From the IMG/VR virus record IMGVR_UViG_3300012006_000003, positions 96-64,095 of that record: DNA of 64,000 nucleotides. One strand, written 5' to 3'. The notes below the pieces were generated by a model. That model had not been told where the DNA came from. It was given only the letters and a program-made list of their open reading frames with translations, and did not search any database. Positions within the stretch are counted from its first letter, which is position 1, and every line of letters begins with the position of its first letter. The translations under genes were made by a program, and so were the position numbers. The stretch comes from a virus (Duplodnaviria; Caudoviricetes). This document shows positions 1-18,900 of the stretch, piece by piece.

Positions 1-2003
1 TAGTTTTCACCTTGTTTTTTAATATAAGACTTGATACCTAGTTTATTGGCAAACTTATCTACAATAGCATTACCTTTAGAATTTGTTTCAGCTATTTCTC
101 TATCACCAATGATTGTTTTAAAAAGATTAATCTCTGGTTCAATATTGTTTAAAGCTTCATACTTAGTTGTCATTTGACTGAAAAGCATTACAGATCTTAC
201 TAAATCTAAACTAACTTCATCAGCATCCATGTCTTGTGTATAATACACAGGTAAGAATTTTTTATCACCTTCAGTTAAGTCAGCTGTTCCAAATCTGGTA
301 TCATCAGCTCTTATAGAAGTAGCATCTTTCCATTTATCTTTTAATAAACCTTTTATATCATCTGTTCTTTCCTTATCCTGTTTATGAAGTGAAGGTAATA
401 TATAACCTCTTTTCTGAGCATCCGGTAATCTTTCTTGTGCTTCTAAGTAAGTATCTAGTAAAAACTTATGATATTCACCTTTTGGATTCTTAGGTTTTCC
501 ATCTAAATTATATAAGTCTGTCCATTTACTATTGATATAATCATTTGACGGTTCACTGAATTCTTTCATGTAGATTTTAGTACCATCTTTTTTTATGATT
601 AAAACTGATTTGTACCAATCATCATATTCTTGTTCTGTTAATACACCAGCATTTTTAAGCTTTTGCTTTTCAGCAATAATCTTATCAATCTCTTCATCAC
701 TTTTTTTCTGAGCATTTTTACTATACCAGTTACTCATTATGCTTTTTACATTAGCGTCATGATCTGATTTTGCAAGTAACTCATCTCTTGTAGGATTAGC
801 ACTTAATTGTGGACCTTTTCTGGCAGTACGTTCTGCAGCATGATAATCACTCATGCGGTATTTTTGTACAAAAGCCATTCTAGTAGTTACTACAGGTTCA
901 CCTAATTTATTTGTACTATAAAAAGATAATTTCTCATATATACCTTCATTAAATTTTGCAGTATTATTTCTACTAGCGGAATTGACAGCATTATATTTAT
1001 CAAATTCTTTACCAGCAATCTCTAATATTTTATCATCTTTTAAACGGGCACCTTCCAATTCAGTTTTAACTACTCTAGCAAATAATCCAAGTGATGCATC
1101 TTTAGAAGAGATCAATGGGTTAAACCAAAAGTCAAGCATACTTTCATCCTCAGAAGCAAATTTTAATAACTCTTCCATTGATGCTTGATCATAGGAAAAG
1201 CTTCTAAACTTTTGAATTCTTTCAGTAAGCTTTTTTATTTTTTTATCATTGGGTTTGCTAGAGTTTATTTCTTCTGCAAGTCTTTTCTCTAATAATTCTG
1301 CTTCCTGAAGTACTTGTTTATCAATATCTAAAGATTTATAGTTAAGTAAAAATGAAGCCATTAAGGGTATACCTTGTTGAATATATTTTTCTTTAACTGC
1401 TTTTCTAGTTGATATAGCATCAGTAAGCATTTGTTTTATAGTCTTTGTCTCACCTTCAGGTATTTCATCTGATTCTGCAGAGAAATAATTATAGATATCA
1501 TCTTTACTGATCTCATCAAGTATATTATATCCATTTACAAAAGTGTTAATAGCAGTCAACTCCTCAATCATTTTCTTTTTAAACTCAGGAGTACCATCAT
1601 CAGCTTTACTTACTAAAGCTGCCATCCTTTTATAAACAGATTGTGACTTATCATATGTGTCTTTGACAAACATAGTGATAGCCTCAATACCATCCAGAAC
1701 CTCAAAGTTATCAATTAAGTTTTTCTGTTTTTTCTCTTTATATGATTGATTAGGAATCTTTTGTTTTTCAAGTATATTTAATTGCTTTCTAAGATATACT
1801 CTGATTTTATCAACCATTGTTGATATATCATCTTTTCTCTCTTCAACAGGTACATTAACTGACTCATCAATTAATTCATTCAAGCTCTCATTTTGGTCAT
1901 AACCTTTATCAACCCATAACTCAAGTGCTCTTTCTTCATTACCGTTAACACTATCTAGTAAATCAACCCATTCTTTACTAGTCTTAATTGGACAACTTAA
2001 CAT
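1..2003 (-). CDS. Large internal/ejected virion protein, N-terminal part (runs off window start)
   Basis: Not in the ORF track. ATG at 2003 overlaps the end of the upstream gene (ATGTTAA) and translates MLSCPIKTSKEWVDLLDSVNGNEERALELWVDKGY...; the frame was open in the part I translated. Helical, charged composition like the neighbouring cargo proteins. Confidence 0.8.
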   Translation of the reverse strand, partial: MLSCPIKTSKEWVDLLDSVNGNEERALELWVDKGYDQNESLNELIDESVNVPVEERKDDISTMVDKIRVYLRKQLNILEKQKIPNQSYKEKKQKNLIDNFEVLDGIEAITMFVKDTYDKSQSVYKRMAALVSKADDGTPEFKKKMIEELTAINTFVNGYNILDEISKDDIYNYFSAESDEIPEGETKTIKQMLTDAISTRKAVKEKYIQQGIPLMASFLLNYKSLDIDKQVLQEAELLEKRLAEEINSSKPNDKKIKKLTERIQKFRSFSYDQASMEELLKFASEDESMLDFWFNPLISSKDASLGLFARVVKTELEGARLKDDKILEIAGKEFDKYNAVNSASRNNTAKFNEGIYEKLSFYSTNKLGEPVVTTRMAFVQKYRMSDYHAAERTARKGPQLSANPTRDELLAKSDHDANVKSIMSNWYSKNAQKKSDEEIDKIIAEKQKLKNAGVLTEQEYDDWYKSVLIIKKDGTKIYMKEFSEPSNDYINSKWTDLYNLDGKPKNPKGEYHKFLLDTYLEAQERLPDAQKRGYILPSLHKQDKERTDDIKGLLKDKWKDATSIRADDTRFGTADLTEGDKKFLPVYYTQDMDADEVSLDLVRSVMLFSQMTTKYEALNNIEPEINLFKTIIGDREIAETNSKGNAIVDKFANKLGIKSYIKKQGEN

Positions 2004-3964
2004 ATGCTTTTTAATATTTTAGCCATTATTTTATTTAACTCAGATTCTGTTGTTATAGTGTTTAACTCATCAAATACATCAGCAATATCAATTCCTTTAT
2101 TAGCAAGTAATACATCAGTGTATTCATTCATTAATGTACCTCTTACAAAGTTATCAAATATTTTATTATTGTATGGTTTAATTGATATAGGTTCAGCAAC
2201 TATTTGCATAGTATCTAAATCTATATTTTTTTGCATAGTTGAGTTATTACTTCTATCAATTAAATCATATGTACCATTTGGATTTAAAAGAGCTTTAGTA
2301 CCTTGAATTACAATAACTTTTGGCTTTATGCCATACTTTTCTAGTTCTTCTTTATATGCTGTTTCAATAGGAGACTCTTCTTCAACTTCATTTAATTGGT
2401 AATATGTAAATTCTGGTGATGCTTCATTATAATTAGTTGGTTCACTTAAAACATAATCCTGTTGATCTTTTTCTCTTTGAAATAATCTTTCATTATTACC
2501 TGCAGTTGCTAAAGTAAGTTTACCTTTAAATATGTCATTTGTTGTTTTAAATATCCCTGAAGAAGTACTTTTATCTTCTCCTCTTTTATAAACAAAAAAG
2601 TCTACTGCTACATGATTTTTACTGGTTTTTTCAACAATATCACCATTTTCATTTCTAATATTATATTGAGTTACCCAACCATTACCTCTATTAAAATCTC
2701 TTTCTAATACTTCTACAGTATAACCAGCTTTAGGTATTAAAAAAGCATATGTTGTATAATCTTTTTGAGCATTATCCCAACCATAATGATATGGTATACC
2801 ATTTATTGATTCAACTTTTTCAAGCATTGTTTCATATTCTTCAATACTATTTACATTAAAATCAATATCATGTATTGGTTCTTCTGAACTTCTATATATT
2901 GTATCACCTTGACCTGCAACTGCTAATGAACCAGTAAGTTTACCATTTAAATCAGTAAATGTTTTAATTATATCTTGTGCAAACTCATTACCTTTTAATG
3001 CTTTATCATAATCAAGTTTTTCAAAAGATGTATTAAGTTTAGCAATGTAATCTTTATCACCCATTAATATATTTATAGCAATATGATCAGCAAGATTTTC
3101 AGAGTACTCCATCTGAGCTAATAGATTATTTCTAAATTTTCCAAATAATCTTTCTATAAATTCTTCTATAGCTGCTAATGCTTTTGCAAGTAATGTTTTA
3201 TCAGTACCGCTTGCTTTGTAGTTTTTAACAAGAGATTTAGCAATTATTTTACCAATTGCTTCAATTTTAACTTGTTTTACATTGTTATATATAGGCATAT
3301 ATTGCTCATATATTTTATCATATTCAGACCAGCTAGTAATATTTTCTAAAAGATCTTTTATAATAGGATTAGCCTCACCCATTAACATAGTTACCATGTG
3401 TCCTACTTCTTCTGGTACTGTTTCAGCATTTCTATTTTTAGCATACCAGATAAGCTTATTTAATACATCAGTTGCACCTAATGCATCTACACCAAGTTTA
3501 GACTTTATATCTTCAAACTCTTTAGATTTAACACCAAAAGGTTTTAGAAAATCTAATAAGTACTTATCAAGTTCTTTTAGTGCAGGTTCAAGTACTTCTT
3601 TAGTATCTAATTGATAGTATGTATCATCATCTTCTGTATTTTCTTGATCATACAAAGCTTGATCACCATTGTAGAATGATAAATCTTGTTTAGTACTAAT
3701 ACCCATTTCAGCAAGTTCATCCTCAAGTTCATTTTGTGCGTCAAAGGCTTCATTAGCTATTTTTTCAAATACGGTATCAGATATATCAACTTTAGCTTTA
3801 TCATTTCCAAATCTATCTACTCTAGATAAATTAGCCCAGCGGTCATTGATTTCTCTTGACCGCTTTTGTGCTTCAATATATGAATGAGAGGTGTCTCTAT
3901 AGCCACCAAGTATCTCATCAATTTTATTATTTATATCTTCCTTTATTACATCTATACAAGCCAT
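1997..3964 (-). CDS. Polyvalent-type virion protein with degenerate zincin-like (EEVGH) domain and Pol-beta-family nucleotidyltransferase-like domain
   Basis: 655-aa ORF; PEEVGH...EAIGK zincin-like motif; LTGSLA..G...IHDIDF...VDFF matches the GS/DxD/D nucleotidyltransferase signature. Confidence 0.6.
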   Translation of the reverse strand: MACIDVIKEDINNKIDEILGGYRDTSHSYIEAQKRSREINDRWANLSRVDRFGNDKAKVDISDTVFEKIANEAFDAQNELEDELAEMGISTKQDLSFYNGDQALYDQENTEDDDTYYQLDTKEVLEPALKELDKYLLDFLKPFGVKSKEFEDIKSKLGVDALGATDVLNKLIWYAKNRNAETVPEEVGHMVTMLMGEANPIIKDLLENITSWSEYDKIYEQYMPIYNNVKQVKIEAIGKIIAKSLVKNYKASGTDKTLLAKALAAIEEFIERLFGKFRNNLLAQMEYSENLADHIAINILMGDKDYIAKLNTSFEKLDYDKALKGNEFAQDIIKTFTDLNGKLTGSLAVAGQGDTIYRSSEEPIHDIDFNVNSIEEYETMLEKVESINGIPYHYGWDNAQKDYTTYAFLIPKAGYTVEVLERDFNRGNGWVTQYNIRNENGDIVEKTSKNHVAVDFFVYKRGEDKSTSSGIFKTTNDIFKGKLTLATAGNNERLFQREKDQQDYVLSEPTNYNEASPEFTYYQLNEVEEESPIETAYKEELEKYGIKPKVIVIQGTKALLNPNGTYDLIDRSNNSTMQKNIDLDTMQIVAEPISIKPYNNKIFDNFVRGTLMNEYTDVLLANKGIDIADVFDELNTITTESELNKIMAKILKSIC

Positions 3965-3974
3965 AATATTAATT

Positions 3975-6900
3975 TTATATGTTACAGTTAGGTTTATAAG
4001 TTGTAGCTTTATCTAGTATTATCTTTTTAGTTTCAGCATCAAGTGTTGATTCTTGACCTCCCGTTTCTCCAGAATCAGCTATTGTGTTATCTGAAAGTAT
4101 ATAATACTTTTTGTTGTTAAAGTTAGACATTCTTAGTGTACCATCTTCTAATTCTTTTTTAATATTTATAATATTAATAGATGTTTTATCAGTCAACTCA
4201 GTACCATTTGCATTAAATATTCTTCCATCAGGTTTAATAACAAAACTAGCTTTTTTAGTGCTTATTAGTCTATCCTCTATTTTTTCAACTACTTGTTCAC
4301 CTGATTGACCATCTGGTTCTTCATTAGTTTCACCTACTGGAGCTTGTTGTTGAGTAGATTGAGTACCTCTAAGTTCTTCTCTTACTTCCATAAGTAGTTT
4401 AGGAAACTCTGTACCCCACTTACCTTTATCTTGTGTATGTGTAAGAGTAGCATTACCAGTAGCAAGAAGTTTAGCTAGAGCATCTGGGTTTTGTTCAAAA
4501 GATAATTTAAGTATATTTTTCATTACTCCTGATGAATCTCTATCCCAGGTACCATCTGATAGATCCGTTATTTCTCTACCTAATGCTTTTGCTTGTTTAC
4601 CTGAAGCAGTTTTTAATTTTTCAAGTATTTCTAAATTTTCTTTACTTGTAGGTGTACCTAATAAAACAGCATTAGTAAACCAAATTTTCATAGCTTGATA
4701 AGCACCTTCAGGAGTTCTAAAAGTTTCATTACCAAGTTTAACAGGTCTTTCAGCAAAGTTACTTAACTCAGCATTTTCTCCTGTACCTGCATAAATGTTA
4801 ATTTTAGTATCACTACCTTGTTGTTGAGTATTAAATCTAGCTTTAAAAGCTTGTTCATTTTTAACATTACCTTCATTAGTTCTAAACTCCCAATCTTTTG
4901 GTGCTAATACTATAGTAGGGATACCTAATTTCATACCCGCTTTTGCACCTGCTTCATCAAATCCTGTTTGACCACCACTTCTTATTAATGTGATTTTGTT
5001 TTTAAGGTTTGGTGAATTAACTATACCACTTAATAAAATATACATAAATTCATCAACTTCTTCTTGAGTGCGGCCTTTCATATCATATATACCGTTCCCT
5101 GCAATATTTAAAGTTTTTGCATTGAATTTGTTCAATATATCTACAGCACTGTTAATTGATGCGGACATCTTTTCTTTATTAAATTTACTCAGGTTTTGAT
5201 TAGTTGTTGCTAGCTTAATATAAATCTTATCTTGTTCTTGAACAGATTTTTTAGTAAGTATTTCACCAGGAGTTTCAAAGTTATCTGCTAAATGTATTGT
5301 TGCATCAGCAGAAGCATTAATTCTAGTTCTAGCTGGATAACCACCAGTTTGATTTTCTTCAAAATTAATTTTACCCGTAACATTTTCTTGTTGTTGTTGA
5401 GTAGATATTTTAGTTGGTTGTGTTGGCATACCAGGTTCTAAATCAGCTGCTCTTCTAAATGTAAATGTTACAGTATAGTTACTAGTAACTGTACCATCAG
5501 GCAATGTAATTGGAGGAAAACTTGAATCAGTTTTTGGTGCTTCAATAACATCATGTACAGCTTCAAATCTACCTTTACCATCCATACCAAAGGTATAGAT
5601 ATCACCATTATGTAATGTAAGTGTTTTAGGATTTACCATTTGACCAGCACCTCTTACTGCTTTACCACCATTATCATCTACTCTTACTTTATGTTCATTA
5701 CCTAATACATATACTACAACTGGATAACCTTTTGCAGTATTAGATTCATCAATATCAGTATGTCTGAATAATTTTGTACCCTTAGTATATATATTATTTA
5801 AAGCAATGTCATAGTTAGACATATCCTTACCTAATGTTTTTTCAATATGTTTTTTTAAGAAGTCAAGTTCTTTAATATTTGGTACTGGTGTGCCATCATT
5901 ATATTTAGAGTCATAAAAATAATAAGGTTTAATTGGTTGTAATTTACCAGTAGCATTAAAGTCAACTTGAGCTGGTTGAACTTTTAATTTTTCTCCTGTA
6001 ACCTTTTTAGTATTATTACCTTTCCACTGCCATCCATAACTAAACATTAAATTAGCCGTGCTACTACCGTTTTCAACATAAGCATTTTTCTTAATGTTGT
6101 CTGATATTGCATTTACTAATTTATTATCAAATTCTTTAGTAGGATTTGTTGAAGCTTGTATTACACCATATTGAGGTATAACTTCTTTAACTCCAATAGG
6201 TTGTACTGTAGCTTGAGCAGATGGTTGAGTTGAAGGTGTCCCCCAATCATATTTATTAATTAAATAATCTAAAGCTATAGCATGAGACGGTTCTCCAAGT
6301 TCTGCATAATATTGCAGTTGTCTTCCTTTTAATTTACCTGATTTTAAAACATCTAGAATAAATGCTTTTCTTTTTGGTTTAACATCTTTAAATTTATCAG
6401 TAGTTAACCAATCAATATAATTTATAACTGCTTCTTTAATAGTATTAGTTTTTATAGTACCTGTTCTAATAAAATGAGCCCAAGGATTACTAAAACTATT
6501 TATATCACTAACCATTTCCATAGTATAAACTCTATTATTAGCTTTTGCTTCTTTTATATTAGCATCCCTATCATATTTACCATCTTTAGTTTTAATGTTA
6601 GAAATAACTACATTTTTATTTTCTAATTGAGAATATATATCATTACTATTAACACTAGTAGATGGTTGAGTAGATCTTGTTGCAACTTTACCTACAATAT
6701 AATTATTTACATTAGGATCATTAGCAATCATCATCTCTGTAATCTTATTAAAAGTAACATTGTTCATGTTGTTTTCAATAAATGCTCTTGATGCTGGCTC
6801 AACTATTTCAAAATATGTAGTATCTGGAAGCACATAACTTAATCCGTATTTAGTACTACCTACTCCATTTTGTAAAATAGATATAAGAGGTAATGCTTTA

Positions 6901-9900
6901 AACATATCAGATATCTCTTTATTTTTAACCGGGTCATTTACTTTGATAACTGTATCATCAGCTAAGTCAATTAAGTTTTGGTGATAAGCTGAAGCTAATT
7001 CACCTTTTACTACAGCTTTGTTATTTAAAGTTAAAACTGATATTTGATCTTTTATTTTTTTAGTTTTAGCATCAAATATATTAACAGGAACATCTGTAAT
7101 TTGCTCTAATACAGAGTATAATTCTTTTAAGTGAGTATTCTCACTCAACATACTCATGAATTTAGTAACAAATTCTTGGTGATCCAATGATGTAAGTGAT
7201 TGAGGAATACCTGGAAAAGACTCACCAGTAGATATAATCTCATTTAATCTGTTCTGATAAATGTAATTTACCATTGCATTCTTAAATGATGTAATGAAAT
7301 TTGTTACACCGTCTGCACCATCACCGTATTTAGCAGGGACTGTTTTATTTTTAAGATAGTCAAGTAAGTACTCAGATACTTTTCTATCATCAGTCAATGG
7401 AAATATTGGCTCTACTAAATCTGGAGTAAGCGTGTTATCAAAGAAAGATCCAAGAATAGATTGATTTCTTAATTTACTTATTAAAGCAGGTTCTAACATA
7501 GATGACTCAGTCAACATATCTAAACCAAGACGTTTTTGTAGTATCTCCTGTATAGTTTTAGATGTTGTTGTATCTGGATTAGACTGTCTTTTGAGATCAC
7601 TCATTGCTTTTATTTGTTTCTCATACTCTAGATAGTGCATGAATGCGGCAACAGCTCTTCTACTTGTTGTATCTTTAGTTTCAATGATCTCTTCTAAATC
7701 TGATAAACTAAACTTGTCAATACCTTTAGTAGCTGCTAAAGCAACATCTTTATAGTTTGCCCAAGATAATGGGTGGTAAAACTCATCATTTGGGTTAGCA
7801 ATTATATATTTAAATAGTGGAGCTTCTTTAGTGTTTATACTTTCAATATCATAAAGATTTATTTTATCTTTTTTGATATCACTTTTTAATTTTTTAATAG
7901 TAGTTTTAAAAACTTTACCTTTCTCACTAATACCACTTAGTCTTACAACCACTGCTGTATCAGGTTCAGCATTAGCCAATGCTTTAGTTAATCTTGTTTC
8001 ATTTGCATCATATATTGCATTACTGATATCAGTTTGTCTTAAAGTAGCTTGTAGAGCATTATATTTAGCACTCTCATCTTGTTTAGTTGGTTTACCTGTA
8101 AGATTAGCATATGTACTACCATATAATCTTTGTTGATTAGCATACTCTATTACCAATGGTTGAGATATAAACAGGATTGCTTCTTCTTTTGGAACACCCG
8201 CTTTAAGTAAACCAAGCATCATTGGGATAAGTTCCTTATTAGCTTGGATAAAGAATATCCATGCATCTTTCTCAACATCCACAGATCCATTCATCAAGTG
8301 AGATATTAAATCGGCTATCTTATCTTTGTTATCTTGACTGTTGATTCCAGATAAAGATATTCTACCATCTTTTGTTTTAGTATGATTAAGTAATAATCTC
8401 ATATCATAATCTATTGATGGGTCTTCTTCATACTTTTTAGTTACTTTATTTTTAACTAAACCTTTATATGTTTTTGGAAGAGCAGCACCTAATGATGTAT
8501 ATAATGGATTCAATGCATTCTCAAGAGCAATGATACCTAATACATCTTTACCAATCATGTTAGCCTCATGCTTATGTAAGTTATAACCTACCTCTAATGT
8601 ATTTGTTGGACTAATGGTTTTATATCTGCTGTATTCTGGTAACTGATCTACTAATTTATCAGCAATATCTTTCATCAAGTAAGTGTCATTAGGTCTGATC
8701 AATGTAGCATATGTTTCAGGTAATTCTAAAAGCCCTCTAATTGAGTCAATTAATCTATTTTCTAAAGCAGCTTTATGTAACTTGATTAATCTTGTCATTT
8801 CAGCTTTATCACCTTTCTTTTTAGAAGCAGCAATAAGTCTATCTAAAGTTTCTTCATCCATACCTGACTCAACATATTGACCATTTGCATCTATGTTAGG
8901 CATGAATGTAGTAAGCTTATCAACGTCAAAATCGGCACCTGACTTAGCAACAATCTCTGATGGAGGTATAATAATGTTACCTGCAGCTGGATCCAAGAAC
9001 TCATATACTTCCATAAACTCCATAGAGTTTAATCCTTGTACTGGAATCCTTACAGCAGTCATAGTAACAGCCTTACGGTTATTACCTTTATTTAACCACT
9101 CATCATTCTTGATCATCTCATTTAATCTTTCTCTTGTACCAATAACTTTTCCGTCATTGTCTTTAAGATTTAAAAGATTATTAAAGTCACCTTGTAATGC
9201 AATAGCAACTTTCATTGCAGTTGTTTTACCATCCTCACCTGGATAATAGAATGGTAAATTATTACTACCTAAGTATTTCTCTATATCTTTAGTTTGTGCT
9301 TTATCAAATTTTAAACCTGAATCCCATAAACCATTTGACATAGCACTAGATACTTGTACTAAAGGTTCACCTTTTACTTTTTGTTTTACAATTCTTTTTT
9401 CAATAATTGATGTAATCATTTTTTCAATGTCTCCTGAGAGCATATGTAATGATAAATCTTTTGTAATCTTGTTATCTGAACCAACTTGGATATAGTCAAT
9501 TAAATGCTCAGGTATCTCTTTTCTTTCTAACTCTCTTTGAATTACATCCATGAATTTAGAAAGATCACCACTTACATATTTACCATCTACTTTTTCATAT
9601 CCAATTTCCTCAAGTAATTCTTTTTTAAGAATACTAGTATAGTTGTCAACAGCATTCTCATATGCTCTAATTTGTGACGTATATTGTTTATAGTTTTCAA
9701 CTATTTCACCATTTTCATATAATCCTTCAAGAATAAGTTTTCTTAACTGAGTTGCAAATACAGTTTTACCTTTATATTTATCAGGTACTGCTGTAACATT
9801 TTTAACATACTCTAAGTATACTGTATTAGGAGTAAACTGTATATCAGATCTTAGTGTCTTTTCAACACCGCCATCATTATATATTTTATCAGCTTTACCA

Positions 9901-12900
9901 TCAGATGTTACACTACCAACTTTAGAACCAGTCTGAAATGTAAAGTACTGTATATTACCTTTCATCATTTGATGATGTAAAGACTCTAAGTCAGATCCTT
10001 TAACTACAGTTGGTATCAACGGCATTAAGGCAAACTTATGCATTGAATTAACTGGTAATGCTGTATTAGCTAAGTGACCAAAGTGTTGTAATTTATATAC
10101 AGGAAAGAAATGAGTTATGTCTTCTGCTTTAACAGTTTTACCATTGATGATGTCTTGAAATAATTTCTCTTGATCAGCTGACCAATTTTTCTCAACAAGT
10201 CTTAATGTACGGTATGCATCAAAAGTTATAAAACCTTGACCATCACCCTCTTCCATTTCCTTATAAGCTTTTAGCTCTTTCTTTAATCTATAATCAACTT
10301 CAGCTTGAGTCAAGTCTCTTTTCTTATAGTCATCTCTTAATGCTTTCTCAATATGATTAATGTATATTGATTTTCTTTTAATGTCTTGTGCTATAGCTGT
10401 ATTGTAAGTACCATTATAATTAAACATTGCATAGTCTGCACCAAAGTCAGGAGAATCAGCTAATTTAGCACCATAAGACGTACCATTAATTTTACTACTA
10501 TTAATAAAGTTCTGAGTATAAAGATCTGTCATAAAACCTCTACCACCAGATGTAGAACCTGTATTTCTTTTATGTAACTCTTGTTTAGCATGATTATACT
10601 GCACTATATCACCATATATTAAACTTGCAGTTTCAAAGTTATGAATCCAAGCATTCATTGTATGAGCTTTAATAAGCATCTTCTCTTCTTCTGCAGTGGA
10701 TAACTCGTATCTTTTTAATTTATTAGTTAATGCAGGATCAATCCATTTAGATTTTTGAAAATCTTTTTGGTTAACATATGTTTGGTCATTGAAGTATTTT
10801 GTTATTTGCTTAGTAATATCAGCTTTTAATTCTGAATCAGTTTTTAAGTAATCAATTAAATTACCATCTTTTACTTTATCAATGATCTCATTTTTAGTAT
10901 CCTCAGTTAATACAGCATCAAAAGCAGTAAAGAATTCACCGGCCATTCCTAATACAGTCTTACCATCAGCTGATAAGATCTCTCTATTGTAACCAACATA
11001 CTTTTTAAACTCATCTTTATTAGCTCTTATTTTTTGTATTCTCATTAACTCAGCTTGAATGTACCCTATGAAAATGTTATCTACAGCATATTTATCTGCA
11101 TTACCGTTAGGAACAAACATATCAATATCCACATATAAGTTACTTTTTTTCTTACCTAGTCCACCAATTATATTATTTCCAGACTTCATACCAAAAGATG
11201 ATGACTTAGATGCATGTCTCATAAATTCTTGGAAACCTGATTTTAACATCATGTTTAACTCCTGAATATATTTACTATGAACATCAAGAGAAGTAGTATT
11301 TGCACCTTCATTAGTACCTACCATCTGACTACCAGAGATCATTACAAAATCAATCTTACCATCTTTTCTTCTATCCCATGTATTTTCATCTACATAGAAT
11401 ATACTTTTAAGTAATTGAGACTGCTCAGTGAAACCATTAATTTTAGGATTAAGGTAACGCATATATTTATACTTACTTTTTCTCCATAAGTCTCTACCAT
11501 TATCTACTGTATTGATTGCATTTACAATCATACTTACAGTATTATCTTCAATAAATTCATTAACAAGATTCTTCTCTGCATTTAATACACTGAAACTAGC
11601 ATACTCTGTACCAAATTTACTCTGCAATTTAGCTAGATTCTGTAGAACTCCTTTTTCACTTTCAACCTTTTTATATATACCATCAGGTATTTTACCATAA
11701 AGTGCTTCAACAGGATTAGCTAAAAACTTTTGTATAAACTCTTTCTGTACTTCTGTAGCATTTCCTTTTTTAATTAATGCATGTATAGACTTTGTAATTG
11801 CAAATAAATAAGGTATACCATATTTCTTTTCATTATTACTTAGCTCATCTTTAATGCTTTTTAAATCTTGAAGATCAATTCCAATTGCTCTAGCAAATTC
11901 AATTTGTTCTTTAGCTGTAGATACCGTATTGAATGCAGCTATTACTTTACTTATTTTTAATATAGATTTGTTATCAGCTGTTTTACCAATATACTCTGTC
12001 TCAGCAGATGAATTAAAATTACTTTTAAATCTGTTTATAATATTTTTAAACTCAATAGAAGCATCAGTTACTTCTGATTTATAACCACCAGTATCATTAT
12101 CCTTATCAATTGTTAACTGTTTATATATTAGTTTAGTTTTCTTAAAGTCTTGCCAAAATGCAGCTTTAATATTAAACTCTTCTATTGTATCAATATCTCT
12201 TGGATTTGGGATCTTACTATTAATAAGTTGTACCAACTCAGGATACATGCTACTTGCCTCAACAAGTTTATCATACATTTTATTTGGGTCCTTTTCACCA
12301 CCAATTACTTTAGTAACAATATTCCATGTTTTACTAAAGTCAGCTAGTTCAGGAAAACCTAATGATCCTGTAACTTGTTTACCATCAACTACTTTAAATA
12401 AACTTTTTAAAATATAAAGAGTTTCTTTTTCAGCTAATTGTAATAGTGATTTTTGACCTACTTCATTTTTTGCTACTGCCTCAGATGAATCTACATTTTC
12501 AGGAGCAGATGTATCATTGTCTATTTCTTCCTCTTCTTCAGATATCTCAATGTATTTTTGCTTAATTAAATCAAATGTACTATGCTCTTTGTGAAAAGCA
12601 AGAACACTATCCCAATTACTTATAGCTTTGTCAATGATTCTAATCTTATCATTTAATACAGTTCTTTTATTAAAGTCTTCATCTGGAGTTGCTTCCAATT
12701 CAGCATTAAAGTTTTCAAGCTTATTAGCAAATCTTTTTTTGATTGTAGCATAAGCAGCAGCTCTATTTTTATCATCAGCAAGGATCTGAATAGTACCTGT
12801 TTTATTAGCAGTAACTAGGTTACCTAATGCATCAACAACTTTATCATCACGTCTTTTTACCCTTACTGCGTACAACTGATCAATAAATACAGACATTGCT

Positions 12901-15900
12901 GAGTCAAGCTGATTAGATACTTTAAGACTATCTTGATAGTTTAAAGCTAATTCTTTTGTTTCTGCATTGACAATACCACGTGCTCTATTAAGAGTGTTGA
13001 ACATATGGTTATCAACAAGTGGAGTATATTTGTTTAAAAGTTTAGGATTTTTACCAGCAAAATATAATCTTTCAAATAAATCATCTTGCATAGATCTTTT
13101 ACCAAGTAATGCTTTAATAAAATTCCAGATTTGTCTGAATATAGTATTTCTTATAGGAGCATCACTTTTAGGTGACGGATCTTTAGCATAATCTCTATAC
13201 TCTTCAGCAAGTATTTCTTCTACCTCTTCTGGAGAAAGATCATAATTATTTAATCTTTTTCTAGTTTCAGCATATAACTTAGTTTTTTGGGCTTTAGTTA
13301 AATATAACTGAGTAAATGCATGCCAAGCTTCATGGTATAAATCTACAGCAGAACTACCAGTAGCAGTATCTAATTGTATTTTAACATCCTCTAATCTTTT
13401 ACCAGCTATAACAAATCTTGCATAAACATCAGAGTTAACAATGTTAGCCATGTGTTCAAGCTTAATAAACTTAGACAATGGAGAATTAGCCCACCACTCT
13501 TTAGCAGCAACTATCTGTTCTTTAGTAACACCATTAGGTAGTTTACTTGATCTATTTAAAGTTATGTCCCCTGAATCTAGCAAATCCATTATATCAGACA
13601 TGTCATCTGAAGCATTAATATCAGATGGTGCAAAATACTCAGCATCAATTTTTGGTGCCTCTTCTTTTTTAGCTTCAGGTGTCTTAGGTGTTTTAGGTAA
13701 TAAAGTATAATCAGTTTCACTAACTTGACCTATTTTTTTATTATTTGAGTCATATATTGAAATTACACCTGTTTTTGGCACACCTTTGCTTGTAACAATA
13801 TCATTAACAATAAATGTTACAGGATCACCAGATTTAATACCAGCAATTGGTTTACCACCCTCATATCTACCTTCTACAAGTACACCATCTACAGTTAATG
13901 TAAATGTAGCATCTGTAAGAGATTTAAGAGCTGTTATAGTACCAGATAATTTATCATTTTTCTTAAGTTTGCCTATAAGTTCATCTTTTCTTATTTTTAT
14001 TCTAGACTCTCTATTATTGTTTACCTCTTCTTCAGCAATACTTATTTCATCATTAAAATCAGTATTTATATTAAATTGAAAGTATGGGTTGTTATTACTA
14101 GTTGCAACATCTTTTTTCTTTTGTCCAGCTACACCTACAATTTTTAAATTTTGAGCTAATAAAAAATCAATATATTGAGTTGGTCTTTTAAAAAATTCTT
14201 TGTTTGCAATATCATATAAATTAAATGTTGCAGAACCATTAAGTAAATTTTCATTAATGGTCATGTTTGTAGGATAGTATATTACTTCACTATCACTTTT
14301 TATATATGGACTTTCATATAGTAAAGAGTCAATAATTAATTGTTCCGCTTTAGGTTCTGAAAGAGTTATTTCTTTAGCACTTGTAGATGCATTTGCTTTA
14401 ATCTTAACAGTTAACTCATTAGTAGTTGAATTATAATTTACCCATAATTTTCTTGTAGTTTGAGCATTAATTGCATTATTTGTAAACTGCATATAGAAAT
14501 CATTTTTTACATTGTTTTCTATATTTGGATTCATTAATACAGCAGCAATTTGCTTAATATACTCTTCACCTAAATTAGGTCTATCAATTGTATACTCTAC
14601 ATCATCAACACGGACATAAGCTTCACTTGTTGTAGTATTAATTTGAATATTAGGTTTTTTTATGTTATACTCTTGTAATAACATATCTAATGTTACTGTA
14701 TTACCATGTGAGAATATATCTGATATACCAGCACTTACACCTTTGATACTTAATAATGGTACCTTTTTTGGATCACCTGTTCTTACTTTATTAGTTAAAG
14801 CTTTTAAGTCTTGAAACTGCTCTTGTTGTTTTTTATCTACTATTTCAAGTTGAGCTTCATATGTAGTATTTTGATTCAGTAACCATTTCTTATAGGTATC
14901 AATTCCCATACCCATTTTATAAGCTACTTTCTCAAGGATGTCTTCAGGAGAAAGTATTCTATCTTCAATACCATAGATATCAGTAACTCTTAATCTATCT
15001 GAGTCTTTTTCATTTCTTACATCTCTTAAGAACTGATATACAATTTGACCACCTTCATTCTTTGTAGATATTTTACCAAACTCATCAAAGTATATTGGGT
15101 TACCACCTGCATCAGATACTACTAAAGCAACTATATCTTTTATAGGAGTAATTCCTTTCTTACGTGTAACATCTTCTGAAATAGAATTACCTTTTTTTAA
15201 TAGATTTACAGTTGTTGTATCTAATAAACCTTTTGCATTAAGAGATCCTAATAATTCAGGTTTAAGTTTAATTACTCTACCTTCATATAATAATTCACCT
15301 AATGCAGAATCTCTTTTACTATTGTTTCTTATGCTTCTTATAGTTCTATAGATTCTTGCCTTATTAAGATCTTTTCTTTCTCTACCTAGAGTATCTTTTT
15401 CATCAGGGTTTCTTGGTTCAAGTTCTTGCATAGTGGATGTGAAAGCACTTGATGCTTGCCATCTAAACGGGTCATTTAATATCTCATCTAACTCATCATT
15501 GTTAGTAGATAAAGGATCATTTAAAATATTATTCTGGATTTGAATATCTATTTCTAAATCCTTTGCTGTAGCTTTTGGTCTAAAATATTTTAGTGTTTCA
15601 AGTAAACCCTTATCAACATTTTTAAATTTTGCTATAAGCTCTCTAATAAAGTTTGCATCAAAGTCTAATGTTTCTAACTCAGCTTGATTACTTGCTTTGT
15701 TTATTAAAGTTGGTACAATCTGTAAAAAAGATGATGCTACATTAATATCTTTTCTTGACTCTATTTGTTCAAATAGATTCTTCATAAAAGTGTCAACTTC
15801 AGCCTTAGTAAAAGGTTTTCCTCCTTCTAAAGCTGTCAACATTTCTTTATATACTAACTTGTATAAGTTCTCAACTTGTGCTTCTGATAATGAACAGTGT

Positions 15901-15908
15901 AGCTTCAT
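3975..15908 (-). CDS. Giant virion-packaged DNA-dependent RNA polymerase (crAss-like vRNAP) with zincin domain and C-terminal accessory domains
   Basis: 3977 aa; RIPVQG...SGADFDVDKL catalytic motif (~8911-9050), DGQGFIT, TQLRKLI, GSKVG; HEAWH zincin motif (~13320); position downstream of the tail genes is typical of crAss-like phages. Confidence 0.92.
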   Translation of the reverse strand: MKLHCSLSEAQVENLYKLVYKEMLTALEGGKPFTKAEVDTFMKNLFEQIESRKDINVASSFLQIVPTLINKASNQAELETLDFDANFIRELIAKFKNVDKGLLETLKYFRPKATAKDLEIDIQIQNNILNDPLSTNNDELDEILNDPFRWQASSAFTSTMQELEPRNPDEKDTLGRERKDLNKARIYRTIRSIRNNSKRDSALGELLYEGRVIKLKPELLGSLNAKGLLDTTTVNLLKKGNSISEDVTRKKGITPIKDIVALVVSDAGGNPIYFDEFGKISTKNEGGQIVYQFLRDVRNEKDSDRLRVTDIYGIEDRILSPEDILEKVAYKMGMGIDTYKKWLLNQNTTYEAQLEIVDKKQQEQFQDLKALTNKVRTGDPKKVPLLSIKGVSAGISDIFSHGNTVTLDMLLQEYNIKKPNIQINTTTSEAYVRVDDVEYTIDRPNLGEEYIKQIAAVLMNPNIENNVKNDFYMQFTNNAINAQTTRKLWVNYNSTTNELTVKIKANASTSAKEITLSEPKAEQLIIDSLLYESPYIKSDSEVIYYPTNMTINENLLNGSATFNLYDIANKEFFKRPTQYIDFLLAQNLKIVGVAGQKKKDVATSNNNPYFQFNINTDFNDEISIAEEEVNNNRESRIKIRKDELIGKLKKNDKLSGTITALKSLTDATFTLTVDGVLVEGRYEGGKPIAGIKSGDPVTFIVNDIVTSKGVPKTGVISIYDSNNKKIGQVSETDYTLLPKTPKTPEAKKEEAPKIDAEYFAPSDINASDDMSDIMDLLDSGDITLNRSSKLPNGVTKEQIVAAKEWWANSPLSKFIKLEHMANIVNSDVYARFVIAGKRLEDVKIQLDTATGSSAVDLYHEAWHAFTQLYLTKAQKTKLYAETRKRLNNYDLSPEEVEEILAEEYRDYAKDPSPKSDAPIRNTIFRQIWNFIKALLGKRSMQDDLFERLYFAGKNPKLLNKYTPLVDNHMFNTLNRARGIVNAETKELALNYQDSLKVSNQLDSAMSVFIDQLYAVRVKRRDDKVVDALGNLVTANKTGTIQILADDKNRAAAYATIKKRFANKLENFNAELEATPDEDFNKRTVLNDKIRIIDKAISNWDSVLAFHKEHSTFDLIKQKYIEISEEEEEIDNDTSAPENVDSSEAVAKNEVGQKSLLQLAEKETLYILKSLFKVVDGKQVTGSLGFPELADFSKTWNIVTKVIGGEKDPNKMYDKLVEASSMYPELVQLINSKIPNPRDIDTIEEFNIKAAFWQDFKKTKLIYKQLTIDKDNDTGGYKSEVTDASIEFKNIINRFKSNFNSSAETEYIGKTADNKSILKISKVIAAFNTVSTAKEQIEFARAIGIDLQDLKSIKDELSNNEKKYGIPYLFAITKSIHALIKKGNATEVQKEFIQKFLANPVEALYGKIPDGIYKKVESEKGVLQNLAKLQSKFGTEYASFSVLNAEKNLVNEFIEDNTVSMIVNAINTVDNGRDLWRKSKYKYMRYLNPKINGFTEQSQLLKSIFYVDENTWDRRKDGKIDFVMISGSQMVGTNEGANTTSLDVHSKYIQELNMMLKSGFQEFMRHASKSSSFGMKSGNNIIGGLGKKKSNLYVDIDMFVPNGNADKYAVDNIFIGYIQAELMRIQKIRANKDEFKKYVGYNREILSADGKTVLGMAGEFFTAFDAVLTEDTKNEIIDKVKDGNLIDYLKTDSELKADITKQITKYFNDQTYVNQKDFQKSKWIDPALTNKLKRYELSTAEEEKMLIKAHTMNAWIHNFETASLIYGDIVQYNHAKQELHKRNTGSTSGGRGFMTDLYTQNFINSSKINGTSYGAKLADSPDFGADYAMFNYNGTYNTAIAQDIKRKSIYINHIEKALRDDYKKRDLTQAEVDYRLKKELKAYKEMEEGDGQGFITFDAYRTLRLVEKNWSADQEKLFQDIINGKTVKAEDITHFFPVYKLQHFGHLANTALPVNSMHKFALMPLIPTVVKGSDLESLHHQMMKGNIQYFTFQTGSKVGSVTSDGKADKIYNDGGVEKTLRSDIQFTPNTVYLEYVKNVTAVPDKYKGKTVFATQLRKLILEGLYENGEIVENYKQYTSQIRAYENAVDNYTSILKKELLEEIGYEKVDGKYVSGDLSKFMDVIQRELERKEIPEHLIDYIQVGSDNKITKDLSLHMLSGDIEKMITSIIEKRIVKQKVKGEPLVQVSSAMSNGLWDSGLKFDKAQTKDIEKYLGSNNLPFYYPGEDGKTTAMKVAIALQGDFNNLLNLKDNDGKVIGTRERLNEMIKNDEWLNKGNNRKAVTMTAVRIPVQGLNSMEFMEVYEFLDPAAGNIIIPPSEIVAKSGADFDVDKLTTFMPNIDANGQYVESGMDEETLDRLIAASKKKGDKAEMTRLIKLHKAALENRLIDSIRGLLELPETYATLIRPNDTYLMKDIADKLVDQLPEYSRYKTISPTNTLEVGYNLHKHEANMIGKDVLGIIALENALNPLYTSLGAALPKTYKGLVKNKVTKKYEEDPSIDYDMRLLLNHTKTKDGRISLSGINSQDNKDKIADLISHLMNGSVDVEKDAWIFFIQANKELIPMMLGLLKAGVPKEEAILFISQPLVIEYANQQRLYGSTYANLTGKPTKQDESAKYNALQATLRQTDISNAIYDANETRLTKALANAEPDTAVVVRLSGISEKGKVFKTTIKKLKSDIKKDKINLYDIESINTKEAPLFKYIIANPNDEFYHPLSWANYKDVALAATKGIDKFSLSDLEEIIETKDTTSRRAVAAFMHYLEYEKQIKAMSDLKRQSNPDTTTSKTIQEILQKRLGLDMLTESSMLEPALISKLRNQSILGSFFDNTLTPDLVEPIFPLTDDRKVSEYLLDYLKNKTVPAKYGDGADGVTNFITSFKNAMVNYIYQNRLNEIISTGESFPGIPQSLTSLDHQEFVTKFMSMLSENTHLKELYSVLEQITDVPVNIFDAKTKKIKDQISVLTLNNKAVVKGELASAYHQNLIDLADDTVIKVNDPVKNKEISDMFKALPLISILQNGVGSTKYGLSYVLPDTTYFEIVEPASRAFIENNMNNVTFNKITEMMIANDPNVNNYIVGKVATRSTQPSTSVNSNDIYSQLENKNVVISNIKTKDGKYDRDANIKEAKANNRVYTMEMVSDINSFSNPWAHFIRTGTIKTNTIKEAVINYIDWLTTDKFKDVKPKRKAFILDVLKSGKLKGRQLQYYAELGEPSHAIALDYLINKYDWGTPSTQPSAQATVQPIGVKEVIPQYGVIQASTNPTKEFDNKLVNAISDNIKKNAYVENGSSTANLMFSYGWQWKGNNTKKVTGEKLKVQPAQVDFNATGKLQPIKPYYFYDSKYNDGTPVPNIKELDFLKKHIEKTLGKDMSNYDIALNNIYTKGTKLFRHTDIDESNTAKGYPVVVYVLGNEHKVRVDDNGGKAVRGAGQMVNPKTLTLHNGDIYTFGMDGKGRFEAVHDVIEAPKTDSSFPPITLPDGTVTSNYTVTFTFRRAADLEPGMPTQPTKISTQQQQENVTGKINFEENQTGGYPARTRINASADATIHLADNFETPGEILTKKSVQEQDKIYIKLATTNQNLSKFNKEKMSASINSAVDILNKFNAKTLNIAGNGIYDMKGRTQEEVDEFMYILLSGIVNSPNLKNKITLIRSGGQTGFDEAGAKAGMKLGIPTIVLAPKDWEFRTNEGNVKNEQAFKARFNTQQQGSDTKINIYAGTGENAELSNFAERPVKLGNETFRTPEGAYQAMKIWFTNAVLLGTPTSKENLEILEKLKTASGKQAKALGREITDLSDGTWDRDSSGVMKNILKLSFEQNPDALAKLLATGNATLTHTQDKGKWGTEFPKLLMEVREELRGTQSTQQQAPVGETNEEPDGQSGEQVVEKIEDRLISTKKASFVIKPDGRIFNANGTELTDKTSINIINIKKELEDGTLRMSNFNNKKYYILSDNTIADSGETGGQESTLDAETKKIILDKATTYKPNCNI

Positions 15909-15912
15909 AATA

Positions 15913-18900
15913 TTAACAGTCTAAATCATTTAATAAATCTTCATAAATAGTGTCTAGTGATTTCTCACTAGCCTCAGTCTCAGCTTTCCCAAGGGCACCT
16001 TTTTTATCAATAAAATCTTGCGCCTTCTTAATTGATTCAGCTATTACTTCTTTATCCATTTCATCAATTTTTTGCTCACCTAATTGAGCATCTTTTGCTT
16101 GTTGAATTGAAAGGGTTGTAACATGTTTATCCAACTTAGACAAAGGTAATGTTTTTTTATCTTTTCCATATTGAAATTCTACACCAGTTTCTGTTGATTT
16201 AATAACTGTAATTTTAGAACCTTTATCAGCAAAAAGTTTATCTTTTTCTCCTGGTATAGGTTCTTTAACTATTACAGTATCTCCTTTATGCAAGATTGTT
16301 TTAGATAGCTTTGTATTTGCTAATTTAAACTCTTCTTTTTTAGCATTGACTAAATCAACAATAGCCGGTCTATCTTCAATTGTGATTTGATTGTTTACAA
16401 GACCCTCTCTTAAATTTACTAAATATTCTTCTAATACTGGTCCTTCATTGATAGATTCTAGTTTATTTTTAACCTCTTCAATAGTAATTCTAGGCCCTAC
16501 TTGTTTTTCAACAACATTCTTTTTATTAACAGTTGTGCTTGTAGGTTGTACAGCACCATTCTTTATGTTTTTATTAATTAAATCTAACCATTCATCAAAT
16601 TCTTTATCTGTACCTGAACTATCTAATTCTGTTGTATTTAAACTTGTAATAAGAGCCATTAGTCCTGATTCAGTCCTTGTGTTTTCTTTTAAACCTTTAA
16701 TTTTATAATCTAATTTTGTACCTGTCTGAGATTGAAATTCTTTTTTCCAAAGCCTATTTATTTTAAAATGGTTGTTAAAATCGTATACAACTTTACCAGA
16801 CTGGTCTTTAATTAGATTAGTTGCTCTATTAATATACATATCAGGAAATACAAAGTTTTTGTTTAATAACTCTGCAACCTTATCAATTTCAGGAGAATAA
16901 GGCATTTTACCTGTTGCTTTGTCAACATTGCCTTTAACTAACCATGCTCCTGTATAACCAAAGAATGGATACCAATCACCTTGAATTTTATCAGATGTTC
17001 CAGCTGATGATTTATAGAAAGGTACAAGTTGTCCATTGATTTTTGCTACAACAAATAATCTACCTTGCATTGCTTCAAACACAACTGCACCTTCAGGATT
17101 AAGTTGAGTGTTAACTATTTCTTTATTTGTTTTTTTATCTATTACTGTTAATGTATTATCCGGTACAACAAGTATATCCTTTAAAGGAGCCATGTTGATA
17201 TAAATTCTACCTACTGGATCTTTATCTGCTGTAATGAAAAATTCTTTTGCATCTTTAATTTGATTTGTAACAGGTTTAGTTTTTACCGTGTCAATGATAT
17301 TGTCACCGTTAGATATACTGTTTACAGTAGGAGATTTTTTACTTAAAGCATCATTTTTAGTATAAAGCTTACCATTGCTAAAGTATCCATAATTGAACTT
17401 AGTAGGTATTTTACCTACGGTCATTTCTGGATATGTTTCAAGCATTTGATCTTCTATAGTATCCAGGCTTACCTTTTTTTCAAGAGTAGATTCACCAAAT
17501 TCAGATTTAGGAAAAGCAAGTATAAACATACCAAGCTGACCTCTATGTGGAGACTCACCTTTCTGTAATTTTAATAACGCATTATATAAAGATTCTTTAC
17601 TACCTACACCTACTGTACCTTGAAGTGCAGTACCTAAATTATATTTAAATTGTGTATCATATATATTTTTAGCAACATCGTCACCAGTTACATGTAAACC
17701 ATAAATCATATCATCAGGTAAAGCTCTTACTTGATCTCTCAAGGCTTCTTTATCTGCTAGTGATACTTCTTTTACTTTCTTTACTTGTTTACCTTTAGCT
17801 TCAGCTATTTCATCAGCAAAAGCTAATGCGTTTAAATCATTATCTAATTGTTCTTGGTATTTAATATATGGAATATCATCAGTGATTATATTCTTCTGGT
17901 CTTCTTTGCTTAGTGTCTTGATAACATCTTCTGGGTAACCCAATCTTTCAAACTCAGTTATAAGTTTTGGATTCATTGCTGTTGCAACTTTAATACCTAG
18001 CGTATCACTGATTTTAATTACAGCATCAATCTTAGACTTAGCATCTCTAAACTCTGGATTCAATGGGAAATACCACTTATCAAGTCCAAGTAATTTTTGA
18101 TTACTAGGTTGCTTAACTGAAGCAATCTTATACTCTTTTTGATTAATTGTAATCTCAAGAGGCATGATGTTTATTTCAGCATCAAGACCTGTCATCTTTT
18201 TCAATAATCTTGCATAAGTATATTGTTGAAGTGTATAATCTTCAATTTTATTTAAGCCAGACTCTGTTCTTGTATCTTTTTGAAAACCGTTCCATTTCTT
18301 TTGCTCACCTGTTTTAAAGTCAACAATCTGTAACTTACCTGTTTGATCTATTAATAGTAAATCAATTTCACCAGCAACACCTGACTCTTCATCAAATACT
18401 TTAATATTATCTGCTAATACAAATAACTCACCTGAATCAATCTTTGCCTTAAGAGGTTTAATAAAACTATCTGGTCCAAATAATTCATCATAAGCTTCTC
18501 TAGATATTCTTGCCTCATCAAACTTAGGTGTTTGACCTGGTGTAAAAAAGCTTCTTAACTGTTTATCTAAGTACGTACCTGCAGTTCTTGTATACTCATA
18601 AGCATTTTCTGATATAAAACTTTGAATATCAACAAGTAAATCTTTTTTAGATTTAATAGGAGTTGTTGCTTCTTCTTTTAATAAATCTTTTAAATACTTT
18701 TTAACTAAAGTAGATGTAGATTTAATCCCGTCTATTGTATCTTTAGTATAACCGGAATTACTTAAAGCAGGTAAAGTTGTATCAATTTCTGCCATGAATT
18801 TATTTATACTGTTGGTTGTAAGACCCTCTGTATCAATAGTTTTAGCAAAAGCTTCTGCAATTAATTTATTCCCTTTATATGTATACTTGTCTTCTTTAAA

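Follow-up and report, generated by a model that had tools for sequence, protein, structure and literature searches.

Exchangeable enzyme modules in the C-terminal part of a crAss-type virion RNA polymerase: candidate early counter-defence enzymes

Background

Why would a phage attach a series of enzyme domains to the RNA polymerase that it carries in its virion? The question is raised by P0001, a giant protein of 3977 amino acids (aa) encoded in a stretch of DNA of 64,000 nucleotides (nt), hereafter the window, which makes up almost the whole of an IMG/VR virus record that is linear and 64,095 bases long (IMGVR_UViG_3300012006_000003). [quoted passage not shown] A preliminary description of this DNA had placed four enzyme-type modules in series after the polymerase core. 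We found these four modules there and also a fifth one, aa 3861-3977, located after the NADAR module and not included in that account. We consider it reasonably likely that the modules are early counter-defence enzymes in a packaged 'polyvalent' vRNAP, which would be ejected with the DNA and would act on ADP-ribose and alkyl lesions of single-stranded nucleic acid.

Results

The gene and two motifs of its product are the following:

3975..15908, minus strand: P0001, giant vRNAP protein with the C-terminal enzyme array, an uninterrupted single open reading frame (ORF) of 3977 aa
8919..8933, minus strand: DFDVD catalytic motif of the crAss-type vRNAP, aa 2326-2330 (motif in sequence)
13320..13334, minus strand: HEAWH, a zincin-type HExxH motif, aa 859-863 (motif in sequence only)

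All crAss-like vRNAPs have a DFDxD motif with Ile or Val at the fourth position, and in gp66 of phage phi14:2, a virion protein that transcribes the early genes, every Asp of the motif is essential (Drobysheva et al., 10.1101/2020.03.07.982082). When the core (aa 2100-2700) was compared by tblastn with 50,697 phage records, 81 of them matched at 23-30% identity (best E 2e-17). All 81 are crAss-like, including Bacteroides crAss phages, IAS virus and 2 Cellulophaga records, and the features that they hit bear the names RNA polymerase or RNAP catalytic subunit. At the nucleotide level, 5 kb of the P0001 gene gave no megablast match in the same records. The core had no Pfam match in the whole-protein scan, the first 3500 residues of P0001 had no match in PHROGs, and phmmer with the whole protein against the PDB retrieved no polymerase chain and no solved chain of gp66, in agreement with the extreme divergence that Yutin et al. 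2021 described (PMC7886860).

Regarding the relatives used below, the array (aa 3080-3977) was searched against proteins of 2187-6960 aa, of which 1773 were scored and 831 matched at E<=1e-3. The best 120 of these 831 form the set of relatives, onto which the pieces of P0001 were mapped by phmmer. The HEAWH motif of P0001 is accompanied by no Pfam match to a zincin metallopeptidase profile, and the motif is all that was found there; the region around it is kept in 59 of the 120 relatives.

The five modules, all of them on the minus strand, are located as follows:

6225..6647, minus strand: module 1, DUF4326-like domain, aa 3088-3228 (sub-threshold profile matches of family members, likeness of the predicted fold)
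5409..6197, minus strand: module 2, AlkB-like 2-oxoglutarate (2OG)/Fe(II) oxygenase, aa 3238-3500 (Pfam, NCBIfam, PDB sequence match, alignment)
4824..5396, minus strand: module 3, circularly permuted YpsA-type (cpYpsA) SLOG domain, aa 3505-3695 (Pfam, alignment)
4365..4808, minus strand: module 4, NADAR domain, aa 3701-3848 (Pfam, PDB sequence match, alignment)
3978..4328, minus strand: module 5, a 117-aa C-terminal domain, aa 3861-3977 (predicted beta-beta-beta-alpha twice, family unassigned)

All the 14 motifs that the preliminary description quoted for its four modules are present where it put them, within the single minus-strand ORF of 3977 aa, and its module borders agree with ours within about 30 bases. 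Its NADAR and SLOG/YpsA-type calls stand firmly, being above the Pfam cut-off both on the whole protein and on excised pieces, and the other two calls stand in part, as described below. The evidence for each module is the following.

i) NADAR (module 4). The excised piece scored 51.5 bits with the NADAR profile (PF08719; cut-off 35.1, E 1.8e-13, aa 3712-3834), whole P0001 scored 42.9 bits, and the genome search gave 47.6 bits. The module matches E. coli YbiA (2b3w, E 1.7e-7), an NCBIfam NADAR-type profile below threshold on the excised piece and, weakly, Pfam Phage_30_3 (E 0.0015). Two residues, E3734 and K3741, are invariant in all 64 aligned modules. They line up with the E...K of YbiA in the HMMER alignment and have the seven-residue spacing of E36 and K43 of T4 AdfN, a comparison made by spacing; E36 and K43 are the key catalytic residues of AdfN (PMC11825919). 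Furthermore, in the segment THTQD both H3824 and Q3826 are kept in 64/64 modules and D3827 in 59/64. The ratio of nonsynonymous to synonymous substitutions (dN/dS, Nei-Gojobori method against viral contigs) was 0.22-0.27, that is, purifying selection.

ii) AlkB-like oxygenase (module 2). The excised piece scored 35.4 bits with 2OG-FeII_Oxy_2 (PF13532; cut-off 31.2, E 1.7e-8, aa 3305-3460), whereas the score on whole P0001 was 29.8 bits, slightly under that cut-off. The NCBIfam AlkB equivalog scored 32.4 bits against a cut-off of 231, and therefore the module is not an AlkB orthologue. The iron triad HxD...H (H3383, D3385 and H3452) is invariant in 57 of 57 aligned modules, and so is R3485, the second Arg of the RxxxxxR pair that binds 2OG (R204/R210 of E. 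coli AlkB). Thus, what stands of the earlier AlkB-like call is the iron triad and the score of the excised piece, and what does not is the first Arg of the pair and the score on the whole protein. The dN/dS was 0.10-0.18 by the same method, again purifying selection.

Modules 2 and 4 are, as far as their sequences tell, enzyme types with their active-site or signature residues kept. We rejected the explanation that the modules are decaying remnants, given the invariant key residues and the dN/dS of 0.10-0.27 for these two.

iii) SLOG (module 3). With cpYpsA (PF12694) the excised piece scored 39.3 bits (cut-off 26.2, E 6.8e-10, aa 3514-3605) and whole P0001 29.2 bits, also above the cut-off, and the module matches phrog_10774 (E 2.6e-21). 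Its motifs are NIAGNG and SGGQTGFDE. In the 34 aligned modules the SLOG loop GGQxGxDE (G3645, G3646, Q3647, G3649, D3651, E3652) is invariant, and NxAGNG is kept in 33-34 of them. In a weak match to the YpsA-like structure 3imk (E 1.2), residues 136-171 of the piece, with SGGQTG, align with residues 5-40 of the chain and residues 15-62 with residues 54-102; because this E-value is poor, the circular permutation rests mainly on the Pfam family.

iv) DUF4326-like domain (module 1). The module contains FSNPW, KEAVxNYIDWL and YYxELGEPSHAxALDYLINKY and by itself had no Pfam or NCBIfam match. Its alignment combines the P0001 module with 24 stretches of related giant proteins, and no Pfam family was matched by more of these sequences than DUF4326 (8 of 25, best E 0.0026, all below threshold). 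DUF4326 itself has been placed in the rhodanese-phosphatase superfamily in the literature. A profile of module 1, compared with 1.84 billion representative sequences, matched 854 proteins at E<=1e-3, and 519 of them at E<=1e-10. The best 150 of the 854 are mostly large proteins with the domain at varied positions, and some representatives have 2-3 copies of it. Short representatives gave a DUF4326 match below threshold in 5 of 15 cases (best 17.7 bits), and a size-restricted search found only 4 homologues of 85-272 aa. Regarding the fold, the AlphaFold model (predicted local distance difference test, pLDDT, 87) was compared with BFVD, where DUF4326 proteins make up 26 of the 50 rows shown (best E 9.3e-3 at a probability of 0.99, template-modelling score 0.43-0.51), none of the 50 being at E<=0.001; in the PDB, Foldseek gave no match (best E 4.8). 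We conclude that module 1 is a real, widespread domain that remotely resembles DUF4326 and is not a member of it by the Pfam rule. The earlier DUF4326-like call is therefore right about the resemblance, through the sub-threshold relatives and the fold likeness in BFVD, and lacks Pfam membership and a PDB match.

Two further observations concern this module. Its FSNPW stands where NADAR has LSNF, and among 48,161 chains compared by VIA-align the top rows were the NADAR structures 8bat (Z 3.5) and 8bau (Z 3.0), both weak. A Z of 3.5 is too weak to claim a kinship of NADAR and DUF4326, and we did not retain it.

v) Module 5. The predicted model (pLDDT 80) contains two beta-beta-beta-alpha units. 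There was no Pfam or NCBIfam match and no usable ESM Atlas match; Foldseek with the model against the PDB gave a best E of 0.23 and VIA-align a best Z of 3.4. The module was found in 4 of the 120 relatives (P0023, P0028, P0038 and P0108), where it ends at the C-terminus or at most 21 residues from it. We ruled out that it is DUF7831, since a profile from 25 relatives gave no match on P0001. As a separate observation, DUF7831 (PF25176) itself is found in 25 of the 120 relatives, often near the C-terminus (for example P0019, aa 4470-4595), and is absent from P0001.

The modules are joined by short linkers rich in S, T, Q and P (all read from the sequence):

6645..6680, minus strand: linker TRSTQPSTSVNS, before module 1
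6198..6242, minus strand: linker GTPSTQPSAQATVQP, between modules 1 and 2
5385..5429, minus strand: linker MPTQPTKISTQQQQE, between modules 2 and 3
4809..4835, minus strand: linker FNTQQQGSD, between modules 3 and 4
4329..4370, minus strand: linker RGTQSTQQQAPVGE, between modules 4 and 5

The motif [ST][TQ]Q[PQS] occurs in P0001 at five places, each of them at a module border; its overlapping matches number 7, and 2000 shuffles give an expectation of 0.27. Across the 120 relatives, the stretches within 20 aa of a module border have 5.0 matches per 1000 aa and the remaining sequence has 0.13. The linkers also resemble each other at the nucleotide level: an exact 16-nt repeat, TTGTTGTTGAGTAGAT, is located at 4344-4359 and 5391-5406 and encodes STQQQQ on the minus strand, and an 18-nt direct-repeat family has four copies in the inter-module linkers (4341, 5400, 6216 and 6657). 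Moreover, the 24 nt before module 1 recur with 100% identity after the AlkB module of another IMG/VR contig, L008. From these sequences, we take the linkers to be flexible spacers that also act as recombination joints; it is also possible that they are cleavage sites.

The preliminary description had recommended comparing the C-terminal architecture among related vRNAPs. This comparison showed that the presence, order and position of the modules all vary. In the 120 relatives, ranked by likeness to the array, the core was mapped in 84, module 1 in 50, module 2 in 57, module 3 in 34, module 4 in 63 and module 5 in 4, and none of these 120 has all four enzyme-type modules. We found the orders 1-3-2, 4-2, 4-2-1, 1-2-4, 4-3 and 3-4, and N-terminal arrays in P0008, P0039 and P0102. 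In many relatives (for example P0019, P0040, P0039 and P0102) SLOG and NADAR lie next to each other, with either of them first, and other domains occupy the same places in relatives, namely ART-PolyVal (Pfam matches in P0085, P0117 and P0050), SF1 helicase and DUF7831.

The similarity of the modules does not follow that of the cores. The nearest relative by the core, P0023, is 90% identical there and 61-80% in the flanks, and has only modules 1 (95%) and 5 (57%). The best match to module 2, in P0005, shares 92% identity in the module and 36-38% in the core; the corresponding values are 81% for module 3 and 35% for the core with P0036, and 89% for module 4 and 55% for the core with P0059.

Nucleotide matches to IMG/VR contigs begin and end at module borders. 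L008 is 95.1% identical over 801 nt, exactly aa 3238-3505 (module 2), and otherwise shares only the 24-nt linker. L011 and L012 are 99.1% identical over module 1 and 89% over a module 3 that is joined directly to module 1, with the adjacent core at 76.5%. Between the window and L012, dS was 0.013 for module 1, 0.157 for module 3 and 0.70 for the core flank, and three such values in neighbouring segments mean three different histories. The dN/dS of module 1 is not meaningful, because it is based on two differences only. Thus, the modules are gained, lost, reordered and exchanged between distantly related polymerases, with breakpoints in the linkers.

Single modules were also found in named phages. 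A tblastn search with the array matched 181 phage records, none of which covers 80% of the query, and the rows listed cover a sixth to a fifth of it, that is, a single module. PhiCrAssBcn2 (Kehishuvirus) has SLOG at the N-terminus of a 2608-aa protein with DFDVD, cr126_1 has NADAR at the N-terminus of a protein with DFDID that is named 'DUF1768 domain-containing protein', and in cr10_1 a giant ORF with a DFD motif carries SLOG at its C-terminus.

Discussion

Regarding the function, our proposal runs as follows. P0001 would be a polyvalent cargo made of a zincin-type HExxH region, a two-barrel core with DFDVD and then five independently folding modules joined by linkers. As its homologues are, the whole protein would be packed in the capsid and ejected with the DNA, and therefore the modules would be in the cell before any phage gene is expressed. 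By analogy with characterised enzymes, the NADAR module would free bases in single-stranded DNA or RNA from ADP-ribose, the lesion that defence toxins of the DarT1 type produce, and the AlkB-like module would remove alkyl lesions from single-stranded nucleic acid. The SLOG and DUF4326-like modules would either bind ADP-ribose-type products or process them further. AlkB enzymes act on single-stranded DNA and RNA, in which they reverse methyl lesions. All four modules would be attached to the enzyme by which the incoming genome is first opened and read, and the turnover of cassettes would fit an arms race with varying host defences.

Several published results are in line with this proposal. In PhicrAss001, three RNAP-associated proteins (gp47, gp49 and gp50) were detected in virions by mass spectrometry (PMC10172136). 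In vitro, gp66 of phi14:2 transcribes single-stranded or denatured DNA far better than duplex DNA (10.1101/2020.03.07.982082), and a polymerase that prefers single strands together with enzymes for single-strand lesions means that tethering them to the first polymerase makes mechanistic sense. NADARs remove ADP-ribose from guanine in single-stranded DNA, which is true of every NADAR assayed (PMC11125620), and T4 AdfN, a phage NADAR, counters DarTG1 (PMC11825919). AlkB domains also occur in the replicases of plant RNA viruses, where they repair RNA (PMC2553587).

Nevertheless, other points weigh against the proposal. Packaging and ejection are predicted from homologues, and activity from the enzyme types of the modules. 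T4 NADAR and YbiA are active in vitro, yet they did not rescue cells from DarT1 (PMC11125620), and viral SLOG, NADAR and DUF4326 were predicted to degrade low-molecular-weight ADP-ribose-derived immune signals and not DNA adducts (PMC9503650). In module 2 the first Arg of RxxxxxR is T3479, in a column with T in 47 and R in 10 of the 57 modules; R3486 (kept in 56/57) and the invariant R3447 might substitute for it. Module 1 is below the Pfam cut-off of 25 bits for DUF4326 (PF14216). The SLOG module had a dN/dS of 0.74 and 0.48 against two viral contigs (Nei-Gojobori), although its signature loops are still invariant; this could reflect diversifying selection on a surface that faces a ligand or inhibitor, or relaxed constraint. 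The 120 relatives were ranked by likeness to the array, and therefore the module frequencies are biased upward. Finally, the linkers and the HExxH motif could point to removal of the modules by cleavage.

The preliminary description had understood the modules as a kit that repairs or protects the entering template. Template repair is plausible and is one of at least two live readings, because the only published prediction that we found favours ADP-ribose-derived immune signals as the target (PMC9503650). In the rival explanation drawn from it, SLOG, NADAR and the DUF4326-like module would act together on soluble ADP-ribose derivatives of host TIR, sirtuin or ART immunity, for example cyclic ADP-ribose variants, and not on nucleic-acid adducts, with the AlkB-like module as an unrelated passenger. 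The adjacency of SLOG and NADAR in many relatives speaks for such signal quenching. However, it leaves unexplained the AlkB-like modules, which are nucleic-acid enzymes present in the arrays of 57 of the 120 relatives, and the SF1 helicase domains of the relatives; each NADAR assayed in PMC11125620 took the ADP-ribose off guanine in DNA, and a tether to the polymerase brings no obvious gain when the substrate is soluble. As the whole explanation we consider signal quenching unlikely, but it and template repair are not mutually exclusive.

Another candidate for the substrate is the nascent early phage RNA, from which the modules would strip the ADP-ribose or methyl groups put there by host defences. 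The AlkB domains of plant RNA-virus replicases (PMC2553587) are a parallel, NADAR is embedded beside the RNA-dependent RNA polymerase in RNA-virus polyproteins (PMC9503650), and the reversal of cytidine ADP-ribosylation by NADAR is the subject of a further paper (PMC12945103). The same data fit an action on the single-stranded DNA template, however, and we regard an exclusive role on transcripts as quite improbable. We give no more credit to the explanation that the modules are never packaged, the linkers being cleaved, perhaps by the HExxH peptidase of the protein itself, so that the modules are freed in the producing cell and act late. It would account for the restriction of [ST][TQ]Q[PQS] to the five module borders of P0001 and for the HEAWH motif; furthermore, fused giant proteins are probably cleaved according to Drobysheva et al. 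(10.1101/2020.03.07.982082), and DdrB of phage P1 is cleaved before packaging (PMC5512222). But the N4 vRNAP, which has a peptidase domain, is nevertheless packaged unprocessed (PMC5512222), the strict motif is present at only 69 of the 378 module borders of the relatives, and the linkers can also be explained as spacers or recombination joints, as the identical 24-nt linker in another context in L008 illustrates.

Early counter-defence by a packaged polymerase is thus the reading that we prefer. A more specific version of it is put forward here tentatively, as a rather doubtful idea. The end of the crAss vRNAP (the N-terminal one in some relatives) might be an in-gene 'cassette dock', in which the linker repeats would serve as recombination joints, through which phages would insert, remove or rearrange counter-defence enzymes, and the enzymes would clean lesions co-transcriptionally. 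The cargo of this dock might comprise NADAR, AlkB-like oxygenase, SLOG, DUF4326-like, ART, SF1 helicase and DUF7831 domains, and ADP-ribose and alkyl lesions might be cleaned from the single-stranded template or the nascent RNA right at the first polymerase on the injected genome.

The closest known concept is that of the polyvalent proteins of the Aravind group (Iyer, Burroughs, Anand, de Souza, Aravind 2017, PMC5512222), which include N4-like virion RNAPs fused to zincin peptidase, ART, lysozyme or PBECR domains. Polyvalent proteins have 2 to 15 effector domains and are encoded with virion genes, and P0001, with five C-terminal modules plus the polymerase, fits among them. It resembles them as a very large protein of the virion region that combines an early polymerase, an HExxH motif and effectors and is predicted to enter with the DNA, and ART-PolyVal is present in its relatives. 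It differs in that its polymerase is of the two-barrel crAss type whereas the N4 type is T7-like, and the passages of PMC5512222 on these proteins make no mention of an exchange of cassettes at linker repeats. In the text of that paper NADAR, YpsA, SLOG, AlkB, 2OG, dioxygenase, DUF4326, Cellulophaga and Bacteroides have 0 occurrences. What we add to the known polyvalent idea is the sharp cassette borders and the linker repeats.

The viral NAD+/ADP-ribose network from the same laboratory (Iyer et al. 2022, PMC9503650) is similar in that SLOG, NADAR, Macro and DUF4326 are fused together in DNA viruses and predicted to act early. However, outside RNA-virus polyproteins those domains are 'typically standalone proteins', whereas P0001 joins them to a vRNAP and to an AlkB-like oxygenase, and the word crAss has 0 occurrences in that paper. 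T4 AdfN (gp30.3, PMC11825919) is likewise a phage NADAR, and its conserved Glu and Lys have the seven-residue spacing, but it is a free protein made after infection, whereas module 4 is nearer to YbiA, is tethered to a polymerase, and its activity is predicted. The replicases of RNA viruses with AlkB and Macro or NADAR domains (PMC2553587; PMC9503650) also have lesion-reversing enzymes fused to a viral polymerase; unlike P0001 they belong to eukaryotic RNA viruses, without virion delivery and without a cassette array.

The giants of the crAss transcription block (Yutin et al. 2021, PMC7886860; phi14:2 gp66) belong to the same gene family as P0001. [quoted passage not shown] The text passages of the crAss transcription-block papers, figures aside, do not name accessory domains on the polymerases. 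Likewise, in the titles and abstract beginnings of the literature on crAss-like phages with NADAR, SLOG, AlkB, ADP-ribosylation or polyvalent proteins, figures and supplements aside, we found no treatment of such domains on the polymerase.

If the proposal is true, swappable enzymes that reverse lesions or process ADP-ribose are a concrete, testable route past host immunity in the first minutes of infection, and the polyvalent-protein idea extends to a second, unrelated class of virion polymerases. Since the borders of the modules are defined, each of them can be expressed and assayed. The sharpness of these borders (99% against 76% nucleotide identity across a linker) provides a natural system to study domain shuffling within a gene, and the array position can be used to mine new counter-defence domains, for example the unassigned modules of the relatives. 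The cassette modules also explain misleading database names of crAss polymerase genes, such as 'DNA helicase' or 'DUF1768 protein'.

Further observations and genome context

The polymerase genes of MT774391.1, MT774379.1 and NC_055901.1 are named after an accessory module, the names being 'DUF1768 domain-containing protein', 'DNA helicase'/'exonuclease V' and 'DprA-like DNA recombination-mediator protein', and therefore the polymerase identity is hidden in public records. In P0067 the NADAR lies within the region of the polymerase core, with core pieces on both sides (aa 2621-2765), and in P0120 modules 1 and 4 are located between the core and the usual C-terminal flank; consequently the cassette sites are not solely terminal. 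This observation also concerns P0057.

The record is estimated by CheckV to be 53% complete. The guanine plus cytosine content of the window is about 30% throughout, and almost all of its long ORFs are on the minus strand; within 4345-6690 there are no plus-strand ORFs of at least 80 aa. According to PHROGs, the large terminase, portal, major head protein and virion structural proteins are in crAss order, and the polymerase gene lies downstream of the terminase, portal, capsid and tail genes, on the same strand. After the polymerase gene there are two ORFs (3-2003 and 1997-3964, minus strand; 667 and 655 aa) with no Pfam or PHROG match. Upstream of it there is an ORF of 2407 aa (15913-23136, minus strand) that had no match in Pfam and whose only match is phrog_32390, of unknown function. 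Lastly, a 214-aa ORF (59411-60055, minus strand) between the portal and large-terminase genes matches homing/HNH endonuclease families (phrog_314, E 2.2e-19), and probably represents a mobile endonuclease that has inserted into the packaging module.

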